DNA of 64,000 nt from Actinomycetes bacterium (GTDB taxonomy: Bacteria; Actinomycetota; Actinomycetes; Prado026). The DNA lies in contig JBBSAJ010000001.1 in the NCBI GenBank assembly GCA_038252405.1, positions 50,530 to 114,529 of the forward strand. Direction: 5' to 3'. A model generated the notes under the pieces. That model was given only the letters and a program-made list of their open reading frames with translations, ran no database searches and had not been told where the DNA came from. This document shows, piece by piece, positions 15,208 through 46,566 of this stretch. The position numbers were made by a program, and so were the translations under genes. Each line of letters starts with the position of its first letter. Within the stretch, counting starts at the first letter, position 1.

Positions 15208-15257
15208 CCATGAAGGTCCCGAAACTTCGGCTGTACGCACAGAAGGGACCCTTCATG
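15208..15257. repeat. REP-like palindromic unit (single 50-bp hairpin), copy A, 13 nt after the argS stop
   Basis: catgaaggtccc-[24 nt]-gggacccttcatg. The inner core gtacgcacagaagggacccttcatgc matches copies B and C. Confidence 0.75.
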
Positions 15258-15277
15258 CAGATGGGGGTGGCGGAGGA

Positions 15278-16699
15278 GTGAGGGCGCACCCGGCGGGGCC
15301 GCGGCACGCGGACGTGCTCGCCGAGCACGGGGCGCTGCCGCCGCCGGCGGACGTGAACGCACTCGACCCGGTGGTCTGGCCGACCACCACGCAGCGCCAG
15401 CCGGGGCACGGCGCGCTCCGGCTCGGCGGCGTCGACGTGCGCGACCTGGCCGAGACCTACGGCACGCCCGCGTACGTGCTCGACGAGGCCGACCTGCGGG
15501 CCCGGATGCGCGAGTGGCGGGCGGCCTGGCCGGACGCCGAGGTCTACTACGCGGCCAAGGCTTTCCTGTGCACGGCGATGGCTCGCTGGGTCGAGGAGGA
15601 GGGCCTCTCCCTCGACGTGAGCACTGGCGGCGAGCTGACCGTCGCCCTGGTCGCCGGCTTCCCGGCCGAGCGGATCATCGTGCACGGCAACAACAAGTCC
15701 GTCGCCGAGCTGGCCCAGGCCCTGGACGCCGGTGTGGCCCGCATCGTCCTCGACTCCTTCGAGGAGATCGCCCGGCTGGCCACGCTGGCCGAGCAGCGCG
15801 GGGTCCGGGCCAAGGTGCTGGTCCGGGTCACCGTCGGCGTCGAGGCGCACACCCACGAGTTCATCGCCACCGCTCACGAGGACCAGAAGTTCGGCTTCTC
15901 GCTGGCCAGCGGCGCGGCGGCCGAGGCGGTGCGCCGGGTGCTCGCGCTGCCCGCGCTGGAGCTCATGGGCCTGCACTCGCACATCGGCTCGCAGATCTTC
16001 GACACCTCGGGCTTCGAGGTGGCCGCTCACCGGGTGGTCGGGCTGGCCGCCGCCATCCGCGACGAGCACGGCGTCGAGCTGGCCGAGCTGGACCTGGGCG
16101 GTGGCCTGGGCGTCGCGTACGTCGAGGGCGACGACCCGATGCCGGCCGCGGACGTCGCCGAGCGGCTGCGCGCGATCGTCGACCGTGAGTGCGTGGCCGC
16201 CGGACTGGTCCGGCCGCGGCTGGCGGTCGAGCCGGGGCGGGCGATCGTCGGGCCGTCCATGGTCACCCTGTACGAGGTCGGCACCATCAAGGACGTCGAC
16301 GGGCTGCGCACCTACGTCAGCGTGGACGGCGGGATGTCCGACAACATCCGCACCGCCCTGTACGACGCCGACTACACGTGCGCCCTGGTGTCCCGGGTCT
16401 CGGCCGCGGCGCCGATGCTCTCCCGCGTGGTCGGCAAGCACTGCGAGAGCGGTGACATCGTCGTGCGCGACGTCCACCTGCCCGCCGACCTGGCCCCCGG
16501 TGACCTGCTCGCGGTGGCCGCCACCGGCGCCTACTGCCGGTCCATGGCGTCGAACTACAACCTGCTCGGCCGGCCCCCCGTCATCGCCGTCCTCGACGGC
16601 GTTGCCCGGGTGGTCATCCGCCGGGAGACGGTCGAGGACCTGCTGCGGCTGGAGGACGTGGGGGACTCGGACGACGGGCCGGTGGGTGCCGGGCGGTAG
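15278..16699 (+). CDS. lysA: Diaminopimelate decarboxylase
   Basis: The protein begins [20 protein letters not shown], the typical actinobacterial LysA N-terminus, and has a PLP fold (YAAKAF...HSHIGSQ). The start is uncertain; an ATG at 15170 is possible. Confidence 0.85.
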
Positions 16700-16776
16700 C
16701 CTGGCCAGCCGCGGCCGGCGACGCGAGCACTCGGGCACCACCACGCGGCCGCACACCACGAGGAACGGAGCAGGCG

Positions 16777-18066
16777 ATGGGCGGGCAGCCACTGCGGGTG
16801 GCGCTGCTGGGCTGCGGCGTCGTGGGCTCGGAGGTGGTCCGGCTGCTCCTCACCCAGGCGGAGGACCTCACCGCCCGGGTCGGCGCCCCGGTGGAGCTGG
16901 TCGGGATCGGCGTCCGCAACGCCGGCGCGGCGCGCGGGCCGGGCCTGCCCACCGAGCTGTTCACCGAGGACCTCGACGGCCTGGTCGACCGGCCGGACGT
17001 CGACGTCGTCGTCGAGGTCATGGGCGGGATCGAGCCGGCCCGGACGCTGCTGGGCCGGGCCCTGCGCCGCGGCGCCTCGGTGGTCACCGCGAACAAGGCC
17101 CTGCTCGCCGAGCACGGTGCGGAGCTGCACTCCGCGGCCGACGGGTCCGGTGCGGACCTCTACTACGAGGCCAGCGTGGCCGGCGCCATCCCGCTGCTGC
17201 GCCCGCTGCGCGAGTCGCTCGCCGGCGACACCGTCCTGCGGGTGCTCGGGATCGTCAACGGCACCACGAACTACATCCTCACCCGCATGGACGAGAGCGG
17301 CGCCGGCTTCGCCGAGGCGCTGGCCGAGGCGCAGCAGCTCGGTTACGCGGAGACCGACCCCACGGCCGACGTCGAGGGCTACGACGCCGCGGCGAAGGCG
17401 GCCATCCTGGCCGGTCTGGCGTTCCACACCCGGGTCCCGCTGGCCGCCGTCCACCGGGAGGGCATCACCGGCGTCGGCGCCTCCGACGTGGCCACCGCCC
17501 GCGCCATGGGTCACGTGGTCAAGCTGCTGGCGATCTGTGAGCGGTCCGAGGACGGCCGCGGCGTGACCGTGCGGGTGCACCCGGCCATGGTGCCGCGGAC
17601 CCATCCGCTGGCCGGCGTCCGGGAGGCCTACAACGCCGTGTTCGTGGAGACCGAGGCGGCCGGGCAGCTGATGTTCTACGGCCGTGGGGCCGGGGGCGCA
17701 CCCACGGCCAGCGCCGTGCTCGGCGACATCGTGGCGGTCGGTCGCAACCGGCTCTCCGGCGGCCACGGCCCGCGGGCCAGCACCTACGCCGACCTCGAGG
17801 TGCGCCCCGTGGACAGGGCACGCACCCGCTACTACATCGCGCTGGACGTCGCCGACAAGACCGGTGTGCTGGCCACGGTCGCCCAGGCGTTCGCGCGGCA
17901 CGACGTGTCCATCGAGACGCTGCGCCAGGACGGGCGCGGGGACGACGCCTCGTTGGTGGTGCTCACCCACAAGGGGAGCGAGGGTGCGCTCGCCGGTGTG
18001 GTCGAGGAGCTGCGGCAGCTGGACGTCGTCCGGGCGGTCGCTTCGGTGATGCGGGTGGAGGGCTGA
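16777..18066 (+). CDS. hom: Homoserine dehydrogenase
   Basis: The protein begins [19 protein letters not shown] and ends in a C-terminal ACT domain. Confidence 0.9.
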
Positions 18067-19142
18067 TGGCGATGGGGACCCGGACCCGGCTGTGGCGCGG
18101 GGTGATTGAGGAGTACCGCGACCGGCTGCCGGTCGACGTGGGCACTCCGGTCGTCACCCTGCTCGAGGGTGGGACGCCGCTGGTCCCGGCCGCCGCGCTG
18201 AGCGAGCTGACCGGCTGCGCGGTGCACCTGAAGGTCGAGGGGGCCAACCCGACCGGGTCCTTCAAGGACCGCGGCATGACCGTGGCGATCTCCAAGGCGG
18301 TCCAGGACGGGGCCAAGGCGGTCATCTGCGCCTCGACCGGCAACACCAGCGCGTCCGCGGCGGCCTACGCCGTGCGGGCCGGCGTCGTGTGCGCGGTCCT
18401 GGTCCCGCAGGGCAACATCGCGATGGGCAAGCTGTCCCAGGCGGTAGCGCACGGCGCGCGGATCCTCCAGGTGGACGGCAACTTCGACGACTGCCTGACC
18501 CTGGCCCGCGACCTCGCCGACTCCTACCAGGTGGCGCTGGTCAACAGTGTGAACCCGGCCCGGATCGAGGGGCAGAAGACGGCCGCCTTCGAGGTCGTGG
18601 ACGCGCTCGGCGACGCCCCGGACATCCACTGCCTGCCGGTCGGCAACGCCGGCAACATCACCGCCTACTGGCGCGGCTACACCGAGTACGCGGCCACGGG
18701 GCCGGCCGGCCGGCGGCCCCGGATGTGGGGGTTCCAGGCGGCGGGCGCGGCGCCGATCGTCCTCGGCGTACCCGTGGCCGAGCCGCAGACCATCGCCACG
18801 GCCATCCGGATCGGCAACCCCGCCTCGTGGGCGCAGGCCCTGGTGGCCCGGGACGAGTCCGGCGGCGTCATCGACTCCGTCACCGACGACCAGATCCTGG
18901 CGGCCCACAAGCTGCTGGCCGCGAGGGAGGGCGTTTTCGTGGAACCGGCGTCCGCAGCCGGAGTGGCCGGCCTGCTCCAGGCGCACGAGCGCGGGCTGCT
19001 CGACCCGGGGCAGACCGTGGTGTGCACCGTCACGGGGCACGGGCTGAAGGACCCGGACTGGGCGCTGTCCGGGGGCGCGCAGCCGCAGACGGTTCCGGCG
19101 GATGCCGCGGCCGCGGCTGCGCTCCTCGACCTGGCCGGTTGA
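18066..19142 (+). CDS. thrC: Threonine synthase
   Basis: The protein contains ...[14 protein letters not shown]...[19 protein letters not shown], the PLP-lysine motif. Its start overlaps the hom stop. Confidence 0.9.
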
Positions 19143-20080
19143 TGCGCGGGGTCATCTTCCGGCCCGGACCGGTGCGGGTACGGGTCCCCGCGACCAGCGC
19201 CAACCTCGGGCCGGGCTTCGACGCCTGCGGGCTTTCGCTGGCGCTGTACGACGACGTTGTTGTGCAGGCCACCGGCTCCGGGTTGCAGGTGGACGTCGAC
19301 GGTGAGGGCGTCGCGGCCGTGCCGCGCACCGAGAAGCACCTGGTCGTGCAGGCCGTGCGGGCCGGGCTCACCGCACTGGGCGGCCAGCCCGACGGTCTCG
19401 CGCTGAGCTGCACCAACCGGATCCCGCACGGGCGCGGACTGGGGTCCAGCGCCGCTGCCATCGTTGCCGGCCTGGTGGCGGCCAGGGCCATGGTCGTCGG
19501 CGGTCGGGAGCGACTGGACGACGACGCCCTGCTGCAGCTGGCCAACCGTATGGAGGGTCACCCGGACAACGTGGCGGCGTGCCTGTACGGCGCGTACACC
19601 GTGGCCTGGACGGGGGATGACGCGGTGGCGCACGCTCGCCGGCTGGACGTCGGGCCGGGACTGGTCCCGGTGGCCTTCGTGCCGCCCACCCAGGTCCGCA
19701 CCTCGAAGGCCCGCCGGCTGCTGCCCAGCACCGTGCCGTTCGCCGACGCGGCCCTGGACGCCGGACGCGCCGCGCTGCTCACCGCGGCGGTCACGGCGGA
19801 CCCGGTCGACCTCGAGGTCCTGCTCGCGGCCACCGAGGACCGGCTGCACCAGCCCTACCGAGCCGCGGCCATGCCCCGCTCCGCCGCCCTCGTCGAGCGG
19901 CTGCGGACCGAACGCGTCGCCGCGGTGATCTCCGGGGCGGGTCCCACCGTGCTTGCGCTGTGCGACCAGGCCAACGCGGCCCGGGTCTCGCGGCTGTCCG
20001 CGCGCGGGTTCTCCGTGCTTGTCTTGGGAATCGACCGTCTGGGAGCGCGGGTGATGCGACTGCGTTCGGTGCACCGCTAG
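19142..20080 (+). CDS. thrB: Homoserine kinase
   Basis: The ATG overlaps the thrC stop. The protein begins [27 protein letters not shown], the GHMP kinase signature. Confidence 0.9.
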
Positions 20081-20330
20081 GTCACGACCCGGACACGCCG
20101 GGGGTCCGGGAAGTATCTGTTCGCCGATGGTGTTAGTGTTCTTGATGCACCAGAAGCCTCACGGCCGGTGCTCCACGCCATTCATCTCCGCCTTGGTCGA
20201 TGCCCCGCACGAGCGCGGACGATCCGAATGGTCGTCTCTTCGCGGAGCCCGCACGTCGATCCGGCGTCGTCACGGCCTCCACGAGGCTCCACCGCACCAT
20301 CCCATTCCGCTCCGCAAAGGACATGCACAC

Positions 20331-22193
20331 GTGAGCGACACCATCACCAGCGACGTCGACGCCCGTCCGGCCGACCAGGCCAACGGCACCGGGTCGCACC
20401 CCGCGTCCGCATCGGACGCAACCGCCAACGCCGCCACCAAGGCTCGCCGCCGCCCGGCCGGGATGTCCGGCATGGTGCTGTCCGAGCTGCAGGAGCTGGC
20501 CTCCTCTCTCGGCATCAGTGGCACCGGCCGGATGCGCAAGGGTCAGCTGATCGAGGCGATCACCGCGGCCCAGTCCGGCGGCTCCGCGTCCGCCCCGCCG
20601 GCGGCCCCGGCCGCGCGGACCGCGCCGCGGACGCAGCCCGAGGAGCGCACCGTGGTGGCCGCTCCGAGTGCGGCTGCCCCCGAGACACCGTCCGAGGCGC
20701 CCGCGAGCGCGCCCGCCGCACCGGCCGCCGAGGCGGCGCCGGAGGGCCGCGAGCGCGCGGCGCGAGGTGATCGCCGGACCGAGCGCACGTCGCCCCAGCA
20801 GGGCGAGCGCCAGCAGCCGGGCGACCGTCCGCACAGTGGCGCACCTGCCCAGCACAGTGGCGCACCTGCCCAGCACAGTGGCGCACCTGCCCAGCAAGGT
20901 GGCGCACCTGCCCAGCAGAACCGCTACGACGAGGACGCCGACGGCGACCGCGGTCGCCGTCGGCGCCGTGGCCGCAACCGGGACCGTCGGCCGCGCGAGC
21001 GCGAGCGTTTCGGGGTCGAGGCCGAGCCGGTCGTCAGTGAGGACGACGTCCTCGTGCCGGTCGCCGGGATCCTCGACATCCTGGACAACTACGCGTTCGT
21101 CCGCACCACCGGCTACCTGCCCGGCCCCAACGATGTGTACGTCTCGCTCGCCCAGGTGCGCCGGTACAACCTGCGCAAGGGCGACGCGGTCACCGGCGCG
21201 GTCAAGCAGCAGCGGGAGGGCGAGCGCCGGGAGAAGTTCAACGCGCTGGTCCGGCTGGACACCATCAACGGGGCCGACCCCGAGGAGTCCCGCAGCCGGG
21301 TCGACTTCAACAAGCTGACCCCGCTGTACCCGCAGGAGCGGCTGCGCCTGGAGAGCGACCCGGGCAACCTGACCACCCGGGTCATCGACCTGGTCGCACC
21401 GATCGGCAAGGGCCAGCGTGGCCTGATCGTCTCGCCGCCCAAGGCCGGCAAGACCATGGTGCTGCAGTCGATCGCGAACGCGATCACCAAGAACAACCCC
21501 GAGGTGCACCTCATGGTCGTGCTCGTCGACGAGCGCCCCGAAGAGGTCACCGACATGCAGCGCACGGTCAAGGGCGAGGTCATCGCCTCGACCTTCGACC
21601 GTCCGGCCGAGGACCACACGACCGTCGCGGAGCTCGCCATCGAGCGGGCCAAGCGGCTGGTCGAGCTGGGGCACGACGTCGTGGTGCTGCTCGACTCGAT
21701 GACTCGGCTCGGCCGGGCCTACAACCTGGCCGCTCCGGCGTCCGGCCGGATCCTCTCCGGCGGCGTCGACTCCAGCGCGCTGTACCCGCCCAAGCGCTTC
21801 TTCGGTGCCGCGCGCAACATCGAGCACGGCGGCTCGCTGACCGTCCTGGCCACCGCGCTGGTCGAGACCGGCTCGAAGATGGACGAGGTCATCTTCGAGG
21901 AGTTCAAGGGCACCGGGAACATGGAGCTCAAGCTCGACCGGCGACTCGCGGACAAGCGGATCTTCCCGGCGGTGGACGTCGACTCGTCCGGCACCCGCAA
22001 GGAGGAGCTGCTGCTCGCCCCCGAGGAGCTCAAGATCACCTGGGGGCTGCGCCGGGTGCTGCACGCACTGGACTCCCAGCAGGCGATCGAGCTGCTGCTC
22101 AACAAGCTGCGTGAGACGTCCAGCAACTACGAGTTCCTGCTGCAGGTGCAGAAGACCACGCACCAGGCCGGCAACGGGAGCTCGAAGGACTGA
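20331..22193 (+). CDS. rho: Transcription termination factor Rho with a long actinobacterial N-terminal insertion domain
   Basis: GTG start with an AAGGA RBS 9 nt upstream. The N-terminus ...[30 protein letters not shown] is followed by an RG/Q-rich low-complexity insert and then the RecA-like ATPase domain ([13 protein letters not shown]). Confidence 0.9.
20832..20915 (+). repeat. 21-bp in-frame tandem repeat x4 (cacagtggcgcacctgcccag) inside the rho insertion domain, encoding (H)SGAPAQ units
   Basis: Three perfect 21-bp copies and one near-perfect copy lie head-to-tail, visible directly in the sequence. Confidence 0.9.
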
Positions 22194-22322
22194 GCGGGAA
22201 CACCGGCGCCTGCACCCGTGTTGGGGGGAGGCGACCGGTGCTGGCACACTGGTCAACCGGCCCGGTTCACGTGCTCGCGGCAGCGCTGGCACGACCCGGA
22301 CCCAGACGATGAGGAGAGGCCC

Positions 22323-22544
22323 GTGAAGCCCGAGATCCACCCCACGTACGCAGAGACGACGGTGACCTGCACCTGCGGGAACACCTTCGTCACGCGGAGC
22401 ACCGCCAAGAACGGTGTCATCCACGCGGACGTCTGCTCCGAGTGCCACCCGTTCTACACCGGCAAGCAGAAGCTGCTCGACGCCGGCGGTCGGGTGGCCC
22501 GGTTCGAGAAGCGGTTCGGCAAGAAGGCCGGCACCGCCTCCTAG
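22323..22544 (+). CDS. rpmE: 50S ribosomal protein L31 (Zn-ribbon C+ form)
   Basis: The protein begins [27 protein letters not shown] and continues ...[26 protein letters not shown] precedes the GTG start. Confidence 0.9.
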
Positions 22545-22632
22545 CCTCCTCGACGGCGCCGTCCCGGAATCTGTCCGGGACGGCGCCGTCGTGTCGTTCC
22601 AGCCCGCGCCATCCGTCCCCTTCGGAGGAACC

Positions 22633-23703
22633 GTGTTCGAGCACGTGGCCGAGCTGGTCGCTGAGCACGACGACCTCGAGCGCCAGCTGGCCTACCCCGC
22701 CGTCCACACCGACCAGGCCGTCGCCCGGCGCCTCGGCCGCCGGTACGCGCAGCTGGGTCCGGTGGTCGCGGCCTACCGTGGCTGGCTGCTCACCGGGGGC
22801 GACCTGAGCGCCGCCCGGGAGCTGGCCGGCGAGGACCCGGCGTTCGCCGAGGAGGCCGAGGCGTTGGCCGTCCGCCTGCACGAGCTGGCCGAGGAGCTCA
22901 CGGTGCTCCTGGTGCCGAGAGACCCGGCCGAGGACCGTGACGTGATCCTCGAGATCAAGGCGGGGGAGGGCGGCGACGAGTCCGCGCTGTTCGCCGGTGA
23001 CCTGCTGCGGATGTACCTGCGCTACGCCGAGCGGCGCGGCTGGAGCACCGAGGTCCTGGACGCGCAGGAGTCCGACCTGGGCGGCTTCCGCGACGTCGCG
23101 GTCGCTGTGAAGGCCAAGGGCACCCCTGGCCCCGGGGAGGCACCGTTCGCCCGACTGCAGTACGAAGGCGGCGTGCACCGGGTGCAGCGGGTCCCGGTCA
23201 CCGAGTCGCAGGGCCGCATCCACACGTCCGCGGCCGGCGTGCTCGTGCTGCCCGAGGCCGAGGAGGTGGACGTCGAGGTCAACGCGAACGACCTGCGCAT
23301 CGACGTGTTCCGCTCCTCCGGGCCGGGCGGGCAGAGCGTGAACACCACCGACTCAGCCGTCCGGATCACCCACCTGCCCACCGGCATCGTGGTCTCCTGT
23401 CAAAATGAGAAGTCCCAGCTGCAGAACAAGGAGCAGGCGCTGCGCATCCTGCGGGCCCGGCTGCTCGCCCACGCGCTCGAGCAGGCCAGCCAGGAGGCCT
23501 CGGACGTGCGCCGCAGCCAGGTGCGCACCGTGGACCGGTCGGAGCGGATCCGCACGTACAACTACCCGGAGAACCGGATTGCCGACCACCGGACCGGGTT
23601 CAAGGCCCACAACCTCGACCAGGTCCTGGACGGCGACCTCGACCCGGTGATCCAGTCGGCCGTGGACGCCGACCTGGCTGCGAAGCTGTCCGGCCAGGCG
23701 TGA
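22633..23703 (+). CDS. prfA: Peptide chain release factor 1
   Basis: GGQ motif ([24 protein letters not shown]) and the PVT tripeptide of RF1. A GGAGGA RBS precedes the GTG start. Confidence 0.9.
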
Positions 23704-35709: not shown

Positions 35710-35710
35710 C

Positions 35711-36100
35711 ATGGCCGAGCTCAACGTCAAGATCGTCGCGGCCGACCGGCAGATCTGGCAGGGCCCGGCCACGATGGTCGTGGTCAAGACGGTCGAGGGC
35801 GAGATCGGCATCATGCCCGGACACGAGCCGGTGCTGGCCCTCCTCGTCGACGGGGTCGTCCGGGTCCACCTGGTGGACGGTGAGCGGCAGATCGCCGCCG
35901 TCCACCAGGGGTTCTTCTCGGTGGACTCCGACAATGTCGCGATCCTGGCCGAGACCGCCGAGCTCGCGTCCGAGATCGACGTCAAGCGGGCCGAGGCGGC
36001 GCTGGAGCGGGCGAAGGCCGCGGGGGAGACCGACGAGGCGGCGGTGCAGCGGGCCGAGGTCCGGCTCCGCGCAGCCGCCCACCCCGTCCCGCACACCTAA
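35711..36100 (+). CDS. atpC: F0F1 ATP synthase subunit epsilon
   Basis: The protein begins MAELNVKIVAADRQIWQGPATMVVVKTVEGEIGIMPGHEPVLALL. Its TAA stop sits immediately before the REP-like element. Confidence 0.9.
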   Translation: MAELNVKIVAADRQIWQGPATMVVVKTVEGEIGIMPGHEPVLALLVDGVVRVHLVDGERQIAAVHQGFFSVDSDNVAILAETAELASEIDVKRAEAALERAKAAGETDEAAVQRAEVRLRAAAHPVPHT

Positions 36101-36103
36101 TCC

Positions 36104-36210
36104 GCATGAAGGGCACCTTCTGTGCGCACTGCCGCACAAAGGCGCCCTTCATCGGTGCGGCATGAGGGGTGGACTGTTGCGGCCTTGCGCACAGAAGGTG
36201 CCCTTCATGC
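36104..36210. repeat. REP/BIME-like element, copy B: two ~50-bp hairpin units head-to-head (107 bp) between the converging atpC and adenosyltransferase genes
   Basis: The outer 25-nt arms are a perfect inverted repeat (gcatgaagggcaccttctgtgcgca / tgcgcacagaaggtgcccttcatgc). The element contains four CATGAAGG / CCTTCATG words. Confidence 0.85.
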
Positions 36211-36226
36211 AAGAAGGGGGTGGGGG

Positions 36227-36814
36227 TCAGGTGCGGGTGGCGCCGGGCTGCCAGAGCACGTCGCCGTCGCCTCCTGCCGCCGGGGTGTTGGCCACCCGGG
36301 ACAGGATGAACAGCAGGTCCGAGAGCCGGTTGAGGTAGCGCGCGGTCAGCGGGTTCATGGTGTCCGCGTACGTCTCCAACGCCGTCCAGGTCGAACGTTC
36401 GGCGCGGCGGACCACCGTGCGAGCCACGTGCAGCAGCGCCGTCCCCGCCGTGCCGCCCGGCAGCACGAACGAGCGCAGCGTGGGCAGCGGCTCGTTGTAG
36501 GTGTCGCAGGCGCGCTCGAGCCGGTCGACGTACTCGGGTTCGACCCGCAGCGGCGGGAACTTCGGGTCCGGGACGACGGGCGTGCACAGGTCGGCGCCCA
36601 CGTCGAACAGCTCGTTTTGGATCCGCAGCAGCAGCGCGCGGACGGCGTCGGGCAGCCCGCCCAGGGCCAGCGCCACCCCGAGGGCGGTGTTCGCCTCGTC
36701 CACGTCGGCGTAGGCCACCAGCCGGGGGTCGGTCTTGGACGTGCGGCTCAGGTCGCCGAGTGCGGTGGTGCCGTCGTCGCCGGTGCGGGTGTAGATGCGC
36801 GTGAGGTTGACCAC
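36227..36814 (-). CDS. Cob(I)yrinic acid a,c-diamide / cob(I)alamin adenosyltransferase (PduO-type)
   Basis: The protein begins [48 protein letters not shown], the PduO/MMAB family N-terminus. It is syntenic with Mtb Rv1314c. Confidence 0.85.
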
Positions 36815-38143: not shown

Positions 38144-38886
38144 CCGCGCACGACACCGAGCCGCGCTCGCTGGTCGTCGGAGAGCGGCTTCACGGCCTCG
38201 CGCAGGGTCACCCCGGAGACCCGGGACACTCGCGGCACCAGCCACGCCACGACCTCGTCGGGCCGGGTCCGGGCCGTCTCCCGGAGCACCCAGCCGATGG
38301 CCTTGCGGATGAAGAACTCCTTCTCGTCGAGCATCCGGTCGGCGTGCCGAGCGAACCGGGAGAAGTCCCCGCCGTCACGCAGCAGCTTGAGCTCGGCGAG
38401 CAGTGCCGCCCGCCGCACCCAGAAGTCGTCGTCGGCCGCCCATCGGTCCAGCGTCGCGCCGACGACGGCGTCGTCCGGTGCCGCCCGAACGATCCGGCCG
38501 GCGACGTCGGCAGCCAGCCCGTCGACCAGGGCCCAGGTCTTCGACTCCCGCACGAGGCGTTCGACCCGACCCAGGTCGGCCGGGGAGAGTCGGTCCGGAT
38601 ACCGGTCGAGCACCTCGACCGCCAGCATCCGCCGCTCGTGCACCGGCGCCGACCACAGCGCCTCGACCAGTCGGACGACGTCGTCATGCCCCAGATCCGG
38701 GCGGCTGCCCTGCAGCCGGACGGCGGCCGCCCGGATCGCGGGCACCGACGTGCCGAAGTGCTCGAGCGAGCTCCTCAGGTAGGCCCGCTCCGTGGCGGCC
38801 CGCTCCGGCCCGCCCGCGGTCCGCAGCTCCTGCTCCAGCTCAGGGACGAGCGCAGTGACGTCCTCCCTGGCGGTTGGTCCGCTCAA
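38080..38886 (-). CDS. DNA alkylation repair enzyme (AlkD/AlkC-like HEAT-repeat glycosylase family)
   Basis: The protein contains ...[13 protein letters not shown]... and the WALVDGLA motif typical of PF08713. A TTG start is chosen just after the upstream gene's stop; the track ORF extends to 38940. The 3' end overlaps the murA 3' end by ~64 bp. Confidence 0.65.
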
Positions 38887-38887
38887 C

Positions 38888-39223
38888 CTAGGCTCCGGCC
38901 GGTGGGGGTTGCAGCAGCTCGCGGGCACGCTGTGCGTCACCGGGGAAGACCAGCACCCGCGGACCGGACTGGGTCACCGCGAGCGTCGCGCGCAGCCCGG
39001 CCTGCTCGAGGGCCTGGCGCTGCCGCTCACCCTCCGGGTAGTCGGGCGGGGCGGCCACCGGGACGAGCAGTCCGTAGTCCGAGGGATCGCCCGGTCGCAC
39101 CGGCCGGGCGACCAGCGAGCCGCCGTGCCCGAAGGCCCAGCGCAGCAACAGCACGAGCAGGCCGAGCCCGCCGAACGCCAGCAACGGCCCGAAGGCGTAC
39201 GAGTAGGCGTTCCAGCTGGCCAC
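38888..39223 (-). CDS. Hypothetical small membrane-anchored protein (N-terminal TM plus soluble domain)
   Basis: A 111-aa protein with very high GC3. The N-terminal hydrophobic segment is FGPLLAFGGLGLLVLLLRWAF. Confidence 0.5.
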   Translation of the reverse strand: MASWNAYSYAFGPLLAFGGLGLLVLLLRWAFGHGGSLVARPVRPGDPSDYGLLVPVAAPPDYPEGERQRQALEQAGLRATLAVTQSGPRVLVFPGDAQRARELLQPPPAGA

Positions 39224-39514
39224 GTCACCAGTGTGGCCCGCCCCGCGAGAGCCGGCACCCCAGCGCCAGGGTCGCCAGCGGGGCCGGGTGATGGGGCTGC
39301 GGATGGTCGCCGCGGGTGATCTCGGCCGCAGGACCGGGCGGGGCCTCGACCACTACGGCGGGTGAGCCGGACGCGCGCCCTGCGTGTCGCGCCCCCCGAG
39401 GCCGAAGCAGCCCCTAGCCTGTCGGCACCACAGTCGGTGGCGGTCCCTTCCCCTCCCGGCGACCCGCTGGCTCGCGGGTCGCTCGGTGTGTGGCCGCCCC
39501 CGGAGGGAGAGGCC

Positions 39515-39853
39515 ATGCGGGACGCAGGTGCGGGTTCGTCGCCGAGCGTGGATCTCCGGCTGCCCGAGCGGCTGGACGTGTCGACCGTGGCGTCGGTCCG
39601 AGACGCGCTGGGCTGTGCCCTGGCGGCCAGCCCCACGGGTGACGTCGTGGCGGACGTCTCCTTGGTCGAGGTCGTGGACGCCGTCGGGCTCGGGCTGCTG
39701 GTCACCACGCACCGCACCTGCGTCCGGCTGGGCGGACGGCTCGTCCTCGTCGACCCCCAGCCGCGGCTGCTGCGGCTGCTGGCGGTCACCCGGCTGCACC
39801 GGGTGCTCTACCTCGACCGGGAGGCCGCCGCCCGCGGGGCGGCCACCGCCTGA
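39515..39853 (+). CDS. STAS-domain protein (anti-sigma-factor antagonist-like)
   Basis: The ATG is preceded by a GGAGGGAGAGG RBS. The protein contains ...LDVSTVASVRDALGCALAASPTGDVVADVSLVEVVDAVGLGLLVTTHRTCVRLGGRLVLV, which is the SpoIIAA-like fold pattern. Confidence 0.7.
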   Translation: MRDAGAGSSPSVDLRLPERLDVSTVASVRDALGCALAASPTGDVVADVSLVEVVDAVGLGLLVTTHRTCVRLGGRLVLVDPQPRLLRLLAVTRLHRVLYLDREAAARGAATA

Positions 39854-39915
39854 CCCGACGCCGGTTACCGCTCAGTAGGCTCGTCTGGTGGGACGACGCG
39901 TGAGGGGTGCTCGCC

Positions 39916-41922
39916 ATGAGCGGTGACCGGGACAAGCCGTGGGTCATGCGGACGTACGCGGGGCACTCCTCGCCGGCGGCGTCCAACGCGCTGTACCGGC
40001 GCAACCTGGCCAAGGGGCAGACCGGGCTGTCGGTGGCCTTCGACCTGCCCACCCAGACCGGCTACGACCCGGACGACGCCCTGGCCCGTGGCGAGGTCGG
40101 CAAGGTCGGCGTCCCGGTCAGCCACCTCGGCGACCTGCGCGGGCTGTTCGACGGCATCCCGCTGGGCGAGATGAACACGTCGATGACCATCAACGCGACC
40201 GCCATGTGGCTGCTCGCGCTGTACCAGGTCAGCGCCGAGGAGCAGGGCGTCGACCCGGCCGTGCTGCAGGGCACCACCCAAAACGACATCGTCAAGGAGT
40301 ACCTGTCGCGGGGCACCTACGTCTTCCCGCCTGCGCCCTCGATGCGGCTGACCACGGACCTCATCGCGTACACGGTCAACCACCTGCCCAAGTGGAACCC
40401 GATCAACATCTGCAGCTACCACCTGCAGGAGGCCGGTGCCACGACGGTCCAGGAGATCGCCTACGCGCTGTCGACCGCGACCGCCGTGCTGGACGCCGTC
40501 CGCGACTCGGGGCAGGTCCCGCCCGAGCGGTTCGGCCAGGTGGTCGAGCGGATCTCGTTCTTCGTCAACGCCGGGGTGCGGTTCGTCGAGGAGCTGTGCA
40601 AGATGCGGGCCTTCGTGGTGCTGTGGGACGAGCTGACCCAGGAGCGCTACGGGGTCGTCGACGCGAAGCAGCGGCGGTTCCGGTACGGCGTCCAGGTGAA
40701 CTCACTCGGCCTGACCGAGGCCCAGCCGGAGAACAATGTGCAGCGGATCGTGCTGGAGATGCTCGGGGTCACCCTGAGCAGGGACGCCAGGGCCCGCGCC
40801 ATCCAGCTGCCCGCGTGGAACGAGGCGCTGGGCCTGCCCCGGCCGTGGGACCAGCAGTGGTCGCTGCGCATGCAGCAGGTGCTGGCCTACGAGTCGGACC
40901 TGCTGGAGTACGACGACCTGTTCGCCGGCTCGCACGTCGTGGCGGCCAAGACCGCGGAGCTGGTGGCCGCGGCGCGCGCCGAGATGGCCACGGTGGAGCA
41001 GCTGGGCGGCGCGGTGGTCGCCATCGACAGCGGCTACATGAAGCACGAGCTGGTCGCGGCGCACGCGGCCCGGCGGGCCCGCATCGAGTCCGGGCAGGAC
41101 GTGGTCGTCGGGGTCAACCAGTTCACCTCGACCGAGCCCAACCCGCTCACGGCGGACCTGCCGGCCGCGATCCAGACCATCGACCCGGCGGTCGAGCAGC
41201 ACGCGGTCGACGCGTTGGGGGAGTGGCGGGCGGCGCGGGACGCCGACGAGGTGGCGGCCGCGCTGGCCGAGCTGCGCAGCGTGGCGGCGGGCACCGCGAA
41301 CCTGATGCCGGCGACCCTGCGCTGCGCCACGGCGGGCGTCACCACGGGGGAGTGGGCCGGCGCGCTGCGCGCGGTCTTCGGGGAGTATCGGGCCCCCACC
41401 GGGGTGGCCGGCGTCGTGGGCATGTCGACGGCGAGCGACGAGCTGGTCGCCGTCCGGGAGGCCGTGCGGCGCACCGGGCAGGAGCTCGGTGGGAAGCTGC
41501 GGCTGCTGGTCGCCAAGCCCGGCCTGGACGGGCACTCGAACGGGGCCGAGCAGATCGCGGTACGCGCCAGGGACGCCGGCTTCGAGGTGGTCTACCAGGG
41601 CATCCGGTTGACCCCCGAGCAGATCGTCGCGGCCGCGGTCGCCGAGGACGTGCACTGCGTCGGGATCTCGATCCTGTCCGGCTCGCACCTGCAGCTGGTC
41701 CCGGAGATCGTCCAGGGGCTGCGGGCCGAGGGGCTCGTGGACGTCGCGGTGGTCGTGGGCGGCATCATCCCGGACGCCGACGCCGAGCAGCTCACCGCGC
41801 AGGGCGTGGCCGAGGTGTTCACCCCGAAGGACTTCGACATCACGGCGGTCATGGGGCGCATCGTCGAGCAGATCCGGCGGGCACACGGACTGCAGCCGCT
41901 GCTCGAGGGTGTCGGGCGCTGA
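39916..41922 (+). CDS. Methylmalonyl-CoA mutase family protein (fused substrate-binding TIM barrel plus C-terminal B12-binding domain; MCM/ICM/ethylmalonyl-CoA mutase type)
   Basis: The N-terminus is ...WVMRTYAGHSS.... The C-terminal region contains ...LLVAKPGLDGHSNGAEQIAVRARDAGFEVVYQGIRLTPEQIV, the DxHxxG B12-binding motif. Confidence 0.85.
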   Translation: MSGDRDKPWVMRTYAGHSSPAASNALYRRNLAKGQTGLSVAFDLPTQTGYDPDDALARGEVGKVGVPVSHLGDLRGLFDGIPLGEMNTSMTINATAMWLLALYQVSAEEQGVDPAVLQGTTQNDIVKEYLSRGTYVFPPAPSMRLTTDLIAYTVNHLPKWNPINICSYHLQEAGATTVQEIAYALSTATAVLDAVRDSGQVPPERFGQVVERISFFVNAGVRFVEELCKMRAFVVLWDELTQERYGVVDAKQRRFRYGVQVNSLGLTEAQPENNVQRIVLEMLGVTLSRDARARAIQLPAWNEALGLPRPWDQQWSLRMQQVLAYESDLLEYDDLFAGSHVVAAKTAELVAAARAEMATVEQLGGAVVAIDSGYMKHELVAAHAARRARIESGQDVVVGVNQFTSTEPNPLTADLPAAIQTIDPAVEQHAVDALGEWRAARDADEVAAALAELRSVAAGTANLMPATLRCATAGVTTGEWAGALRAVFGEYRAPTGVAGVVGMSTASDELVAVREAVRRTGQELGGKLRLLVAKPGLDGHSNGAEQIAVRARDAGFEVVYQGIRLTPEQIVAAAVAEDVHCVGISILSGSHLQLVPEIVQGLRAEGLVDVAVVVGGIIPDADAEQLTAQGVAEVFTPKDFDITAVMGRIVEQIRRAHGLQPLLEGVGR

Positions 41923-41929
41923 CCCGCGC

Positions 41930-42319
41930 TCAGTCCTCCGGGGGGTGCTCCTCGGTCGTCGGCTCGGTGGTCGGCTCGGTGGTCGGCTCCACCACGCGCT
42001 CGACCGTGTGCACGGCTGCAGGTGGCTCGCCGGCCGGCATCACACCGGGTGGGAACCCGACCCAGCCGTAGCGCTGGACGTGGTCGTCCAGCCGTTCCAA
42101 CGCCGCCTGCACCGCTCCCGGCTCACCGCCGCTGCGCTGCTCGCCGTAGTACGCGGCGCCGAGGTCGGCGAGCAGCCGGCTGGCATCGCGGCGCACCTGC
42201 CACTCGTCCAGCGCCTGCTGGCCGTGGGCCAGGGCGCTCTGCGCCTCCCGCACGACCTGCTGCGCTGCGGTCTTGGCCCGCTCGACGAGCTCCTCGTCCC
42301 ACTTCTTCGCGGTGTTCAT
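41930..42319 (-). CDS. Hypothetical acidic protein with C-terminal (EPTT)n tandem repeat; distal gene of the ABC-2 operon
   Basis: A 129-aa protein beginning MNTAKKWDEELVERAK... and ending ...VEPTTEPTTEPTTEEHPPED. GAGG RBS, high GC3, and a 12-bp DNA repeat x3.5 at 41955-41999. Confidence 0.55.
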   Translation of the reverse strand: MNTAKKWDEELVERAKTAAQQVVREAQSALAHGQQALDEWQVRRDASRLLADLGAAYYGEQRSGGEPGAVQAALERLDDHVQRYGWVGFPPGVMPAGEPPAAVHTVERVVEPTTEPTTEPTTEEHPPED

Positions 42320-42381
42320 GACCTCAGGGTAGGCCCGGACCGACTGGTGGGGCACCGGTCGTTCGACCCGCCGACGTCCGG

Positions 42382-43200
42382 TCAGACCTCCTCCCGGCGC
42401 TGCCAGCGGAAGCCGCGCAGGGCGAGGACGACGCCGACCACAGCCCACACGGTCAGCACGGCGGCCACCTTCCCCAGCTCCCAGCTGCCGGCCGGCTCCT
42501 GCCTGGCGAAGGACTCGGGCAGGAACACCGAACGCATCCCCTGGCACAGCCACTTGAGCGGGAAGAACGAGGACGCCACCTGCATCCAGTGCGGCAGCTG
42601 GGAGAACACGAAGAAGACGCCGGAGGTGAACTGCAGCACCAGGACGATCGGGGTGACCAGCGCGTTCGCCGTCCGGCCGGAGCGGACCGCGCCGGACATT
42701 GCGATCCCGAGCGACACGCACACGACCAGCCCGAGGGCGCTCACCCACAGCAAGGTGAACCACTGGGTGGCGGTGGCCGGCGGGCTGACGTCGAACAGCG
42801 CGGCCCCGATGAGCAGCAGCAGCACGACCTGACCGACGTAGCCGACCAGGACGACGCCGAACTTGCCGAGGAAGTAGGCGGCGGCCGGCATCGGGGTGCC
42901 GCGCAGCCGCTTGAGGGTGCCGTCGTCGCGCTCCATCGGGATCGCGAACGCGAGCTGCTGGAAGCCGCTGTAGACCAGGCCGGAGGCGATCATCCCGGCC
43001 AGGAAGTACTGCGCGAACGTGACGCTGCTGCCTTTGAAGACCGGGCCGGAGAAGACCGTGCCGAACACGAGCAGCAGCAGCATCGGGAACGAGAAGGTGA
43101 AGATCACCGTCTCGCGGCCACGGAAGAACGACTTGAGCTCGAGGAGGAACCGCTGCCAGCCGATGCTGCTGGTGCCCGGCAGGCGCGTGCTGGTGCTCAT
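42382..43200 (-). CDS. ABC-2 type transporter permease
   Basis: A six-TM protein beginning ...FRGRETVIFTFSFPMLLLLVFGTVFSG. Its ATG overlaps the ATPase stop (ATGA). Confidence 0.8.
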   Translation of the reverse strand: MSTSTRLPGTSSIGWQRFLLELKSFFRGRETVIFTFSFPMLLLLVFGTVFSGPVFKGSSVTFAQYFLAGMIASGLVYSGFQQLAFAIPMERDDGTLKRLRGTPMPAAAYFLGKFGVVLVGYVGQVVLLLLIGAALFDVSPPATATQWFTLLWVSALGLVVCVSLGIAMSGAVRSGRTANALVTPIVLVLQFTSGVFFVFSQLPHWMQVASSFFPLKWLCQGMRSVFLPESFARQEPAGSWELGKVAAVLTVWAVVGVVLALRGFRWQRREEV

Positions 43201-44060
43201 GGCGCCTCGTCGGACTCGGACGGCTGGGCCCCGACCAGCGTCAGGTAGACGTCCTCGAGGGTGGGTCGGCGGACGGCCAGCTCGGGGATCTCGCCGTCGA
43301 AGTGTGCCGCCAGCTCCTGCACGAACCGGGTGGGCTCGGAGGTCCGGGCCTCGCGGGGCTCACCGTCGCTCCAGGAGACCAGCGCCTTCGCCGTGCGGCG
43401 TCCGCCGAGGGTGGCGGGGTCGCCCAGAGCGGCGATGCGGCCGTCGACGATGACGGCGACCCGGTCGGCCAGGTGTTCGGCCTCCTCGAGGTAGTGCGTG
43501 GTCAGCAGGATGGTCGCGCCGTCGACCCGTAACGAGGCGATCAGGTCCCAGAACTCCCGCCGGGCCTCCGGGTCGAACCCGGTGGTCGGCTCGTCCAGGA
43601 ACAGCAGCTCGGGGCGGCCGATGATGCCGAGCGCGACGTCCAGCCGCCGGCGCTGGCCGCCGGACAGGTCGGTCACCTTCGACCGGCGCTTCTCGGTCAG
43701 CCCCACCGCGGCGATCACCTGGTCGGGGTCGCGGGGGTTCGGGTAGTACGTCGAGAAGTGCCCTACGACCTCGTCCACCCTGAGGTCGGCGAGGTCGGCG
43801 GCGGACTGCAGCACGATGCCGATCCGGGCCCGCCAGGCCGGCGTGGGATGGGACGGGTCCTCCCCGAGCACACGCACCGTGCCGGCGTCGGCGTGCCGGT
43901 ACCCCTCCAGGATCTCGACCGTCGTCGTCTTGCCGGCGCCGTTCGGACCGAGCAGCGCGAAGCACTCGCCGGGGTCGATCGCCAGGTCGATGCCGTCGAC
44001 CGCCTGGGTGTCCCCGTAGGCCTTGCGCAGGGAGCTCACCCGGATCGCTGACTCGGCCAT
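43197..44060 (-). CDS. ABC transporter ATP-binding protein
   Basis: The protein begins MAESAIRVSSLRKAYGDTQAVDGIDLAIDPGECFALLGPNGAGKTTT, with the signature LSGGQRRRL and the Walker B motif LLFLDEPTTG. Confidence 0.85.
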   Translation of the reverse strand: MAESAIRVSSLRKAYGDTQAVDGIDLAIDPGECFALLGPNGAGKTTTVEILEGYRHADAGTVRVLGEDPSHPTPAWRARIGIVLQSAADLADLRVDEVVGHFSTYYPNPRDPDQVIAAVGLTEKRRSKVTDLSGGQRRRLDVALGIIGRPELLFLDEPTTGFDPEARREFWDLIASLRVDGATILLTTHYLEEAEHLADRVAVIVDGRIAALGDPATLGGRRTAKALVSWSDGEPREARTSEPTRFVQELAAHFDGEIPELAVRRPTLEDVYLTLVGAQPSESDEAP

Positions 44061-44125
44061 GGCTCGATCGTGTCCGGCCTGGCCCGCTCGGTCAACGGGG
44101 CTGGCGCGGCGCCCGGCCGGCGGCC

Positions 44126-44800
44126 TCAGAACAGCCGCAGGCCGGGGTCGTCGTGCCCGCGCAGGGCGTCGTAATCGACGGTCAGGCACTCGATCCCGCG
44201 GTCGGTGGCCAGCACCCGGGCCTGTGCCTTGATCTCCTGTGCTGCGAAGACGCCGCGGACCGGCGCGAGGAGCGGGTCCCGGTTGAGCAGCTCGAGGTAG
44301 CGGGTCAGCTGCTCCACGCCGTCGATCTCGCCGCGCCGCTTGACCTCGACCGCGACCGTCGCGCCGGCGGCGTCCCGGCAGAGCAGGTCGACCGGGCCGA
44401 TGGCGGTCGGGTACTCACGACGAACCAGCCGCCAGCCGGCGCCGAAAGTCTCGACATGGGTGGCCAGCAGGTGCTGCAGGTGCGCCTCGACGCCGTCCTT
44501 GACCAGGCCCGGGTCGACGCCCAGCTCGTGGGCCGAGTCGTGCAGGACCTCCTCGATCGTGATCACCAGCTGCTCGGCGGCCTTGTTGACGACCGTCCAG
44601 GTACCGGCGCCGTCGTCGTCGACGTCCTCGCGGATGGCGCACGGCGGGCTCATCCAGTTCAGCGGCTTGTAGGCGCGGTCGTCGGCGTGGATCGACACCG
44701 ACCCGTCCGCCTTGACCAGCAGCAGCCGGGTGGCGCTGGGCAGGTGGGCGGTGAGCCGGCCGACGTAGTCGACGCTGCACCGGGCGATGACGAGCCGCAC
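44126..44800 (-). CDS. nucS: Endonuclease NucS (EndoMS, mismatch-specific)
   Basis: The N-terminus [54 protein letters not shown] matches the mycobacterial NucS N-terminus (MRLVIA...). Alternative GTG starts at 44809 and 44827 are possible. Confidence 0.85.
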
Positions 44801-44867
44801 GCAAGGCACCGTAGTCGACCTCCGCATCCGGCTGCCGACCGGCGCAACCCCGGCTAGCGTTTCGAGG

Positions 44868-46466
44868 ATGGACGAGCGGCGGACCTACGACTACGTGATC
44901 GTCGGCGCGGGCAGCGCGGGGTGCGTGCTGGCCTACCGGCTGGCCGAGAGCGGCGCCTCGGTGCTGGTGCTGGAGGCGGGGGGCGACGACGCCGGGATCG
45001 ACATGATCAAGATCCCGGCCGGATTCCCGAACCTGTTCAAGACGGAGGTCGACTGGGACTACTCCACGACCGAGCAGAAACACCTGCTCGGGCGCCGGCT
45101 GTACTGGCCGCGCGGCAAGGTCGTCGGTGGGTCGTCGTCCATCAACGCCCAGCTCTACGTTCGCGGGAACGCGCTCGACTACGACACCTGGCGCGACGAC
45201 CTGGGCTGCGCCGGCTGGGGGTACGCCGAGCTGCTGCCGTACTTCAAGCGGGCCGAGGACAACGAGCGGGGCGCGTCGGCCTACCACGGGGTCGGCGGCC
45301 CGCTGCGGGTCGAGGACCTGCGGTTCCGCCACGACCTGACCCAGGCGTTCGTGGAGTCGGCCGTCGCCTTCGGGCTGCCGCGCAACGACGACTTCAACGC
45401 GGCCGCCCAGGACGGCGCCGGCTTCTTCCAGGTCACCCAGCGGCGCGGGGCCCGGTGGTCGGCGGCCAGCGCCTACCTGCGCCCGGCACTGGCCACCGGG
45501 GGCGTGACCCTGACGACCGGCGCGCTGGTGACCCGGGTGGTGGTCGAGGGCGGCCGGGCGGTCGGGGTGGACTGGCTGCAGGACGGCGTGGAACGGGGGG
45601 CGGACGCCGGGGCGGAGGTGGTCCTCTCCGGAGGCGCGGTGAACAGCCCGCAGCTGCTCATGCTCTCCGGGATCGGCCCGGCGCCGCACCTGCGGGAGCT
45701 GGGCCTGGCCGTGGTGTCCGACCTGCCCGGGGTCGGTGGCAACCTGCAGGACCACCTGGCGATCCCCGTGGTGTGGCTGACCCGAGGCACCACGTCGTTG
45801 CACGACCACGAGAACGTGCGCCAGCTGCTGCGCTGGCAGGCCACCCGACGGGGCCCGTTCGCCTCGACCGTGGCGGAGTCGTGCGCCTTCGTGCGGACCC
45901 GGGCCGACCTGCCGGCTCCCGACATCCAGTTCCACGTCGCCGCCGCGGCGTTCTTCGACAACGGGCTGGGCGAGCCGCCGGGACCGGGGTTCACGATGGC
46001 GCCCACGCTGGTGTCGGTCGCGAGCGCGGGCCGGCTGCGGCTGGCCTCGGCCGACCCGCGGTGGCGGCCCTCGATCGACGCCGGCTACCTCACCGCGGAC
46101 GAGGACCTCGAGGCGCTGACGGCGGGGGTCCGGATGGCCAGGGAGATCGCCGCGGTCGGCCCGCTCGGGCCGTTCCTGGACCGGGAGTTCCTCCCCGGGC
46201 CGGACGCGTCCGGCCCGGATGACCTGCGCGAGCACGTACGGCGCTGGAGCCAGACCCTGTACCACCCGGTGGGGACCTGCGCGATGGGGGTCGGGGACGA
46301 CTCGGTGGTCGACCTCGAGTGCCGGGTGCGCGGCGTGGCCGGGCTGCGGGTCGTGGACGCCTCGATCATGCCGTCGGTGCCGCGGGGCAACACCAACGCC
46401 CCGACGATCGCGCTGGCCGAGAAGGCGGCCGACCTGATCCTGGCCCACCCCGCCCCCTCCGCATGA
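44868..46466 (+). CDS. GMC family oxidoreductase (choline dehydrogenase-like)
   Basis: The protein contains [21 protein letters not shown], the FAD-binding fold, and [11 protein letters not shown]..., with a C-terminal ...[14 protein letters not shown]. Confidence 0.9.
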
Positions 46467-46566
46467 AGGTGCCCTTCTGTGCGCAAGGCCGCAACAAGCC
46501 GCCCTTCATCGCCGTCCATGAAGGGTAGGAAGGTGCGGCAGTACGCACAGAAGGGCACCTTCATGC
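46461..46566. repeat. REP/BIME-like element, copy C: two hairpin units head-to-head (106 bp) between the converging GMC oxidoreductase and aldehyde dehydrogenase genes; the GMC stop codon lies inside the first arm
   Basis: Outer arms gcatgaaggtgcccttctgtgcgca / tacgcacagaagggcaccttcatgc, with the internal words cccttcatcg and catgaaggg. Confidence 0.85.

Follow-up and report, generated by a model that had tools for sequence, protein, structure and literature searches.

The three intergenic loci studied here lie in a window of 64,000 nucleotides of actinomycete DNA (contig JBBSAJ010000001.1, positions 50,530 to 114,529; coordinates below are those of the window). They are real copies of a lineage-specific palindromic family, with a unit of about 50 nt, in an uncultured high-GC actinomycete. 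They are called locus A (15208-15258), locus B (36104-36210) and locus C (46461-46566). The family works like a repeat of the type formed by the REPINs and the bacterial interspersed mosaic elements (BIMEs), in which repetitive extragenic palindromic (REP) units stand in inverted pairs. We give a probability of about 0.7 to the reading that the three loci are copies of a lineage-specific, non-autonomous palindromic repeat family of this REP/BIME/REPIN kind. The family is not a proven member of a system in which REPINs are served by a REP-associated tyrosine transposase (RAYT), and it is filed as REPIN/BIME-like only, for want of an established RAYT partner and of a GTAG-type tag. The sequence family was previously undescribed, and its kind is already known from REP, BIME and REPIN and from the mycobacterial TRIT motif. 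The original prediction held such elements to be poorly catalogued in Actinobacteria. The kind of element is not new to the phylum, since TRIT, a close actinobacterial analogue, has been described (PMC3152330).

The repeat unit that the original prediction had read in the three loci was found in all of them. The 25-nt arm GCATGAAGGGCACCTTCTGTGCGCA had four matches in the window at three mismatches or fewer, and none of 100 dinucleotide-preserving shuffles matched it. The 12-mer word of the unit occurred seven times against 1.2 expected; one of these occurrences (26649) falls within coding sequence and seems to be a chance match. The core CATGAAGG-NNN-CCTTCTGTGCG was common to the five units present. 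Copy A had been described as single and copies B and C as inverted pairs with 25-nt outer repeats, and this is what was observed: locus A is a singlet, and loci B and C are head-to-head doublets whose outer arms pair at 25/25 and match at 24/25 positions, respectively. The folding check that had been proposed gave a single long hairpin for locus B (-86.1 kcal/mol, z -9.7) and for locus C (-90.9 kcal/mol, z -12.3), with 0/200 shuffles equally stable in either case, and a weak hairpin for locus A (-24.7 kcal/mol, z -2.9). The opposite strand of loci B and C folds nearly as well. The conserved element is longer than the extent of about 50 nt first given to it, as it also takes in C-rich sequence on its 5' side and G-rich sequence on its 3' side.

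The singlet of locus A is read on the minus strand (15208-15258; 54 bits with nhmmer), with the outer arm GCATGAAGGGTCCCTTCTGTGCGTA (minus-strand reading) at its right end and the inner arm CATGAAGGTCCC at its left. The G-rich 3' flank AGATGGGGGTGGCGGAGGA (15259-15277, plus strand) reaches the candidate GTG start of lysA at 15278 and is kept in the related loci L027, L066 and L055. At locus B the three bases tcc (36101-36103, plus strand) span the distance from the TAA of atpC to the element. The left unit (36104-36154, plus strand; 57 bits with nhmmer) shows the outer arm (36104-36128), a GCCGCA box and the inner arm CCCTTCATCG. The right unit is inverted (36160-36210, minus strand), and its outer arm (36186-36210) is the perfect complement of 36104-36128. 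The G-rich 3' flank AAGAAGGGGGTGGGGG (36211-36226, plus strand) belongs to the insert and is missing at the empty orthologous site of L070. The 3' coding sequence of atpC (36083-36100) takes the C-rich role here and pairs with this flank, which gives an inverted repeat with 70-nt arms. At locus C the C-rich 5' flank CACCCCGCCCCCTCC (46446-46460, plus strand) is translated as the last residues (HPAPS) of a GMC oxidoreductase. The stop codon of that gene is the TGA (46464-46466) within the GCATGA of the left unit (46461-46511, plus strand). The inverted right unit (46516-46566, minus strand) is followed by the G-rich 3' flank GGATCGGGGGGAGG (46567-46580, plus strand), which runs to the TCA (46581-46583) that is the stop of a convergent aldehyde dehydrogenase gene.

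The family is dispersed well beyond these three loci. Species-representative genomes were scanned with the 19-base core and gave 10 single matches, eight of which look like chance, in unrelated phyla. The other two were a true singlet behind a stop codon in a metagenome-assembled genome (MAG) labelled "Actinomycetes bacterium" (L005) and a doublet with which a chimeric contig begins in a MAG labelled Bacteroidales (L009). The first 3.5 kb or so of that contig (L009:1-3500) have a GC content of 76%, and the sequence beyond them has about 30%. The high-GC end opens inside the doublet, so that the repeat is the probable cause of the misjoin or of the break in the contig. As only these single matches were obtained, the genome of the window lies outside the species-representative collection. 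Its AtpC protein had no exact match on record and is 96-98% identical only to MAG and metagenome proteins labelled "Actinomycetes bacterium", the next relatives being at 73% or less. GCA_021795105.1 and GCA_036510875.1 are among the relatives. The same core scan in JGI metagenomes gave 50 loci, mostly from a few samples. A hidden Markov model (HMM) built from eight units (nhmmer) delineated 59 elements in the collected contigs. After removal of redundant contigs about 48 distinct sites remained. At least 27 of them are doublets, about 18 are singlets and 3 are cut by contig ends, and nearly all belong to contigs of this one uncultured lineage. The dispersal, the occurrence in relatives and the inverted doublet architecture compared from the start with the BIMEs are thus all borne out, with head-to-head doublets at a majority of sites. 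Since the loci were gathered by exact arm match, any comparison of conservation between singlets and doublets is biased. Seven contigs break off no more than 12 nt from an element, as a dispersed repeat would lead one to expect. The family is abundant in the lineage, breaks metagenome assemblies and yields spurious mini-ORFs (open reading frames), so that recognising it improves the annotation and binning of MAGs.

It is very improbable that the similarity is due to chance, to an assembly artefact or to a small-peptide gene (MKVPFCA...) read from an ATGAAGG start. An ATG does open a short ORF in every unit. However, no shuffle reproduces the arms, and the family is found again in NCBI, ENA and JGI assemblies of independent origin. 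The small-peptide reading was rejected: the variable triplet changes residues 3-4, indels of 1-3 nt occur, the ORFs have fewer than 25 codons, and conservation is symmetric on both strands. The peptides are not conserved across copies, and the mini-ORFs are spurious, as had been supposed.

From the outside to the inside, the unit consists of a C-rich leader of about 10 nt, the 25-nt arm, the GCCGCA box, a variable heptamer and the inner arm. The 25-nt arm can be written GCATGAAGG-NNN-CCTTCTGTGCGCA and holds the small palindrome GAAGG/CCTTC. The inner arm CCCTTCATGG is often followed by ACGGCG, which in doublets pairs with the CGCCGT of the partner across a variable loop. A flank logo of 69 non-redundant arms showed that a C-rich upstream tract of about 10-15 nt and a G-rich downstream tract lengthen the palindrome. 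Going outward from the arm, C makes up 60-86% at positions -14 to -6, followed by YYCYG and then by CATGAAGG, with a G-rich mirror on the other side. Unit length varies by 1-3 nt. The doublets measure about 105-160 nt in total, with spacers of 4-58 nt and one of 139 nt, and fold at -75 to -111 kcal/mol. As single-stranded DNA or RNA, a doublet folds up into a single long, imperfect hairpin.

The two halves of a doublet vary together. The RNAalifold consensus of 24 doublets was one long hairpin, with 94.2% of the cells paired compared to 90.9% in shuffles and 33-49% in slid-register controls. The covariation score was 0.108 against 0.058 in shuffles, none of 500 shuffles being as high. The central triplet of GAAGG-NNN-CCTTC was TGC in 30 arms, GTC in 23, GCA in 12, GGC in 3 and GCT in 1. 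Both arms carried the identical triplet in 17 of 23 doublets, when 7.0 were expected and 0/10,000 shuffles reached 17. A flip of the triplet within the hairpin loop was considered and is not claimed: only TGC/GCA fits it, GTC (23 arms) being almost without a GAC counterpart. In the atpC-site variant of L072 and L071 both arms are altered together, from TGTGCGCA to TGTCAGT/ACTGACA. Between copies, identity was 0.90 in the outer arms and 0.66 in the inner parts. The inner heptamers fall into two types, CACAAAG.. (A) and CA.CTTTCC.. (T), with 13 mixed, 7 A/A and no T/T doublets, a count made by eye and not statistically firm. A 50-nt "mini-doublet" was seen in L022 (8503-8552), made of just two outer arms round a 9-nt loop; both of the converging genes stop at the TGA of its two GCATGA ends.

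The family is gained, lost and remodelled over the timescale that separates genomes a few percent apart. Among relatives at 87-98% AtpC identity, orthologous sites were empty, or occupied by a singlet, a doublet or a variant. The site behind atpC carries doublets in the window, in L017-19 (98%) and in L072/L071 (96-97%), and these differ in their inner units or arm variants. It is empty in L070 (87%), where the spacer is the 5 nt of TAA-ccggg-TCA, and in L073 (69%), where it measures 17 nt. Compared to the empty site of L070, the insert lies between TAA-cc and gg-TCA, the G-rich flank being included. In L011-16, from a sister population (96%), only a 39-nt hairpin sharing the GCATG termini is present. 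This hairpin, CCGCATGACGGGACCCTCATACGGAGGGTCGGCATGCGG (L011:10391-10446, also in L012-L016), is bordered by C-rich and G-rich flanks; it could be what is left of an element after decay, or a short relative in its own right. The site between argS and lysA has a singlet in the window, L027 and L066, and a full doublet in L055 (about 94% DNA identity); the singlet of the other three is orthologous to the right unit of this doublet together with its G-rich flank. Such polymorphic sites, among genomes a few percent apart, offer natural comparisons, with and without the hairpin, that could reveal whether it affects mRNA 3' ends.

Two further observations concern these orthologous sites. At the atpC site the window's doublet (36104-36210) has the type-A inner unit CTGCCGCACAAAGGCGCCCTTCATCG on its left side, and the doublet of L017 (3274-3379) has it on its right side in reverse complement. 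Either an inversion of the segment enclosed by the 25-nt inverted arms or two independent insertions would be consistent with this swap. In L073 (GCA_038210415.1), a distant relative syntenic with the window, the stop codon of the orthologous GMC oxidoreductase gene is followed by a palindromic element of another sort (20125-20345). It shows the arms GGCCACAAGGGTCCCCTGATGC and GCATGAGGGGACCCTTGTGGC, a C-rich left flank and a G-rich right flank of tandem (GGGGGTGA)n repeats. The GCATGA and GGGNCCC modules of the window's family are present in it in a changed order, which suggests a wider superfamily.

The placement of the copies relative to genes was narrow. Wherever a gene running toward an element could be seen, its stop codon was at most 18 nt from the element or inside it. 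At about 15 distinct sites the stop was the TGA of a terminal GCATGA, on either side of the element. The GMC oxidoreductase TGA inside locus C, which had already been picked out, is one such case. The tail of that protein differs from that of the L073 orthologue, which ends in ...LILAAR*, and it is therefore the C-rich flank with GCATGA that provides the final codons and the stop of the window's gene. The family thus rewrites gene 3' ends, donating stop codons and short tails rich in Pro, Ala and Ser. Copies usually occupy the entire spacer beside the stop codon. Junctions were classed with a simple gene caller based on GC3, so that the counts are approximate: the 26 sites with both neighbours resolved comprised 10 convergent, 11 tandem and 5 divergent junctions, compared to 25, 99 and 25, respectively, among 149 background junctions. 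Convergent junctions were enriched at element sites (10/26 against a background of 17%, P = 0.007), and divergent ones were not depleted (about 5/26). The proposed location at gene 3' ends accordingly holds in that stop codons abut or lie within the elements, and fails as an exclusive rule, about 5 of the 26 sites being between divergent genes.

The genome is very compact at 3' ends. Other convergent junctions of the lineage are -13 to +21 nt wide and without a hairpin, which makes the element an optional insert. The inserts fill spacers that are otherwise minimal, and much of their narrow spacing from the stop codon is explained by this alone. Convergent pairs without a hairpin, overlapping or at most 21 nt apart, were seen at 9333-9336, 49935-49947 and 63616-63638 in the window and at 12360-12368 and 16984-16992 in L011.

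No T-run was seen after the copies at loci A, B and C. A scan of the 30-49 kb segment gave 3 hairpins with a U-tract when 2.9 were expected by chance, and no element was among them. The statement that no U-tract follows the hairpins is thus confirmed: the 3' flanks are G-rich and the elements went unflagged in that scan. The GC-rich hairpin of a canonical intrinsic terminator is present, but its 3' flank is G-rich where the terminator has a U-tract.

We propose the following course of events. The doublet would probably be a copied unit, or one whose arms were homogenised against each other, and a putative transposase or binding protein probably recognises the strongly conserved outer arm. Insertions would survive where they are least harmful, at 3' ends and above all at convergent junctions. 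Transcripts arriving from either side would then probably carry a stable hairpin, lacking a U-tract, at their 3' end. This hairpin would block 3'-to-5' exonucleases, as an analogy with the E. coli REP/BIME, the Correia elements of Neisseria and the TRIT of mycobacteria suggests, and its 25-bp perfect stem could be a substrate for RNase III. The hairpin might also affect translation termination of the upstream gene, because it starts at most 18 nt from the stop codon and the terminating ribosome would have to melt its base. Liang, Rudd and Deutscher reportedly found in 2015 that E. coli REPs within 15 nt of a stop codon stall ribosomes and lower expression. Termination proper would more likely be Rho-dependent, since a rho gene is present in the window (20127-22193) and since the mycobacterial RNA polymerase requires a U-tract at intrinsic terminators (PMC3993855).

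Several results weigh against a mobile repeat of this kind with a role at gene 3' ends. No RAYT or Y1 transposase was found in the six-frame ORFs of about 490 kb of loci, a weak test as no complete genome was included. The queries were E. coli RayT (phmmer) and an HMM of 121 enterobacterial RAYT sequences, a profile that gained little reach because all homologues retrieved for it were at least 65% identical. The associated RAYT proposed as a check was thus looked for without a find, and an enterobacterial profile applied to partial genomes makes the negative a weak one. There was no target-site duplication at the filled-versus-empty atpC site nor in the 69 arm flanks, which are inverted-complementary (C-rich and G-rich) and not direct repeats. 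Between different sites, no pair of copies is near-identical from end to end, and nothing therefore points to a very recent burst. Gene conversion within an element, and not copying of the doublet, could account for the covariation between arms. About one-fifth of the sites lie between divergent genes, where a 3'-end role cannot apply. In 11 copies in tandem context the sense and antisense strands had 28 and 25 G-U pairs and folded equally, a comparison meant to separate RNA-level from DNA-level selection that gave no strand bias. In M. tuberculosis, TRIT motifs overlap few mapped 3' ends, and the terminator role of TRIT itself is unconfirmed and doubtful (bioRxiv 10.1101/2022.06.01.494293).

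The missing duplication bears also on whether the doublets might be ordinary miniature inverted-repeat transposable elements (MITEs), that is, internally deleted copies of an insertion sequence (IS) moved by the DDE transposase of that IS, with the arms as terminal inverted repeats. A length of 105-160 bp, 25-bp terminal inverted repeats (perfect in locus B), intergenic location and presence/absence polymorphism would all suit such an origin. Nevertheless we consider it improbable. The flanks are inverted where a MITE would call for a duplication, and no inverted arm pair 0.7-3 kb apart, as expected of a parent IS, was found in the 50 metagenome loci, in which coverage of the lineage is incomplete. 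Plasmid, phage and viral collections gave no match. Singlets with one arm are common (about 18 sites), and every unit is already a hairpin by itself. The genes between nearby element pairs in L022, L031, L037, L049 and L052 were considered as carriers of a mobilising enzyme and rejected: by sequence they look like housekeeping genes, not transposases. The three loci are therefore not read as fragments of an IS or MITE, nor are they the only three copies or confined to one genome, these being the findings that would have told against the original prediction.

The hairpins may instead be selected 3'-end signals, that is, sequence-specific bidirectional terminators or processing sites of TRIT type, read by a lineage-specific factor that binds the conserved arm as a double strand, in a genome devoid of U-tract terminators. 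This seems unlikely to us, though less so than a MITE origin. The tight placement next to or over stop codons resembles that of TRIT around position -8 (PMC3152330), and the 25-nt arm is conserved beyond the needs of pairing, as its identity exceeds that of the inner parts. The central bases of GAAGG-NNN-CCTTC are free, as expected of a palindrome contacted by a protein. Being palindromic and enriched at convergent junctions, the element could serve both converging transcripts, and canonical terminators are at chance level in the 30-49 kb segment. Against such a role, most convergent junctions of the lineage do without a hairpin in their narrow spacers (-13 to +21 nt), and at the atpC site L070 and L073 lack any element while relatives at 96-98% AtpC identity differ. 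The sites between divergent genes, the absence of the U-tract that the mycobacterial polymerase needs for intrinsic termination (PMC3993855), the few mapped TRIT termini and the G-U pairs without sense-strand bias (n=11) point the same way.

A more specific proposal, which we hold to be unlikely, is that the 25-nt arm (GAAGG-N3-CCTTC between CATG and TGTGCGCA) is the site of a dedicated lineage-specific protein. In a first version, the family may be a REPIN-like replicator run by an enzyme outside the known proteobacterial RAYT groups. In a second, it may be a domesticated signal that works through a factor and without a U-tract, either in the formation of 3' ends or in the termination of translation; if so, it would help explain how high-GC actinomycetes poor in intrinsic terminators punctuate convergent transcription. 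If a dedicated protein does bind the arm, the L073 element would point to a wider superfamily of such signals in the clade.

The genes neighbouring the loci were checked by Pfam, and their identities agree with those first assigned: the loci stand at the stop codons of argS, atpC and a GMC oxidoreductase gene, with B and C in convergent gaps. Upstream of locus A is argS (13501-15195, plus strand; DALR_1, Arg_tRNA_synt_N, tRNA-synt_1d), and downstream a lysA-like diaminopimelate/ornithine decarboxylase gene (15278-16699, plus strand; Orn_Arg_deC_N, Orn_DAP_Arg_deC) whose start codon is uncertain. Locus A begins 13 nt past the TGA of argS and ends about 20 nt before lysA, a tandem and not a convergent context. 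The atpC gene (35711-36100, plus strand; ATP-synt_DE_N, homologues found) precedes locus B, which begins 3 nt past its TAA; the convergent partner is a cobalamin adenosyltransferase gene (36227-36814, minus strand; Cob_adeno_trans). The GMC oxidoreductase gene (44787-46466, plus strand; GMC_oxred_N/C) has its last codons and stop within locus C. It faces the convergent aldehyde dehydrogenase gene (46581-48743 for the ORF as listed, minus strand; Aldedh, residues 230-680), the true start of which is probably further downstream.

The native 3' end of argS (15178-15195, CCCCCGCCCGCATGTGA) resembles an element terminus, in which a C-rich tract precedes GCATGA. In L055 (reverse complement, about 2862-2880) the argS end cccgcatgtaa is followed in tandem by cccgcatgaagg. 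This likeness could be a coincidence or a hint of a target preference guided by microhomology. The rho gene contains 4.1 tandem copies, at 96% identity, of a 21-nt unit GCACAGTGGCGCACCTGCCCA (20831-20917), in the segment that separates the Rho_N domain from the RNA-binding domain. A 631-aa ORF at 48052-49947 has two copies each of the 3HCDH_N and 3HCDH domains; its internal duplication (48382-48974 and 49300-49892) is 918 nt apart with about 71% DNA identity. A tRNA gene (12931-13002, minus strand) was the sole Rfam match at the gathering threshold, and a relaxed E-value added only sub-threshold hairpins resembling miRNA precursors.

Among known systems, the REPINs of Pseudomonas and Enterobacteria (PMC3116915) are defined by inverted conserved ends of about 25 nt, a less conserved spacer that forms the hairpin with compensatory changes, singlets that are probable remnants, and differences between strains. 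The present family shows the inverted hairpin-forming pair, the conserved ends with compensatory changes in the spacer, and the differences between close relatives. It is also similar in total length (about 100-130 nt for REPINs), in its extragenic location and in having singlets beside doublets. It differs in its actinomycete host, in the C-rich and G-rich terminal extensions, in the very frequent overlap with stop codons, in the lack of a RAYT in a weak test and in the lack of a GTAG-like tetranucleotide: neither a GTAG nor a CGTC tag was seen in the 69 arms, whose termini read YCYG-CATGAAGG. In the literature we found no paper joining "repetitive extragenic palindromic", Actinobacteria and RAYT.

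The REP and BIME sequences of E. coli are likewise short imperfect palindromes in inverted pairs, found at gene 3' ends or between convergent genes and forming hairpins without a U-tract. The possible pairing of two unit types in the present family recalls their Y and Z units. Hairpins of E. coli REPs stabilise the upstream mRNA. There is no sequence similarity, the unit is about 50-70 nt here against about 35 nt in E. coli, and no defined linker motif such as an IHF site was identified in the present family. The Correia elements of Neisseria and the enterobacterial repetitive intergenic consensus (ERIC), or intergenic repeat unit (IRU), of 100-150 bp share with it their size, terminal inverted repeats of about 25 bp, an intergenic location that can overlap ORF ends, and folding into long hairpins when transcribed. 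Those hairpins are substrates of RNase III or RNase E and alter mRNA stability. Neither is similar in sequence to the present family, and the Correia elements have a TA target duplication, IHF sites and promoter elements, whereas no duplication was seen here.

TRIT is the analogue from the same phylum. Its 147 copies in M. tuberculosis are palindromic, mostly bidirectional and placed narrowly round the stop codon, and the motif is restricted to Mycobacterium (PMC3152330). An actinobacterial host, a conserved palindrome and a narrow placement at or over the stop codon are common to both. The present family differs in consisting mostly of doublets of more than 100 nt, a comparison made by description and not by TRIT sequence. 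The family thus extends doublets of REPIN/BIME type to a high-GC Gram-positive lineage without a known RAYT partner, and it is a second actinobacterial case, after the mycobacterial TRIT, of conserved palindromes on stop codons.

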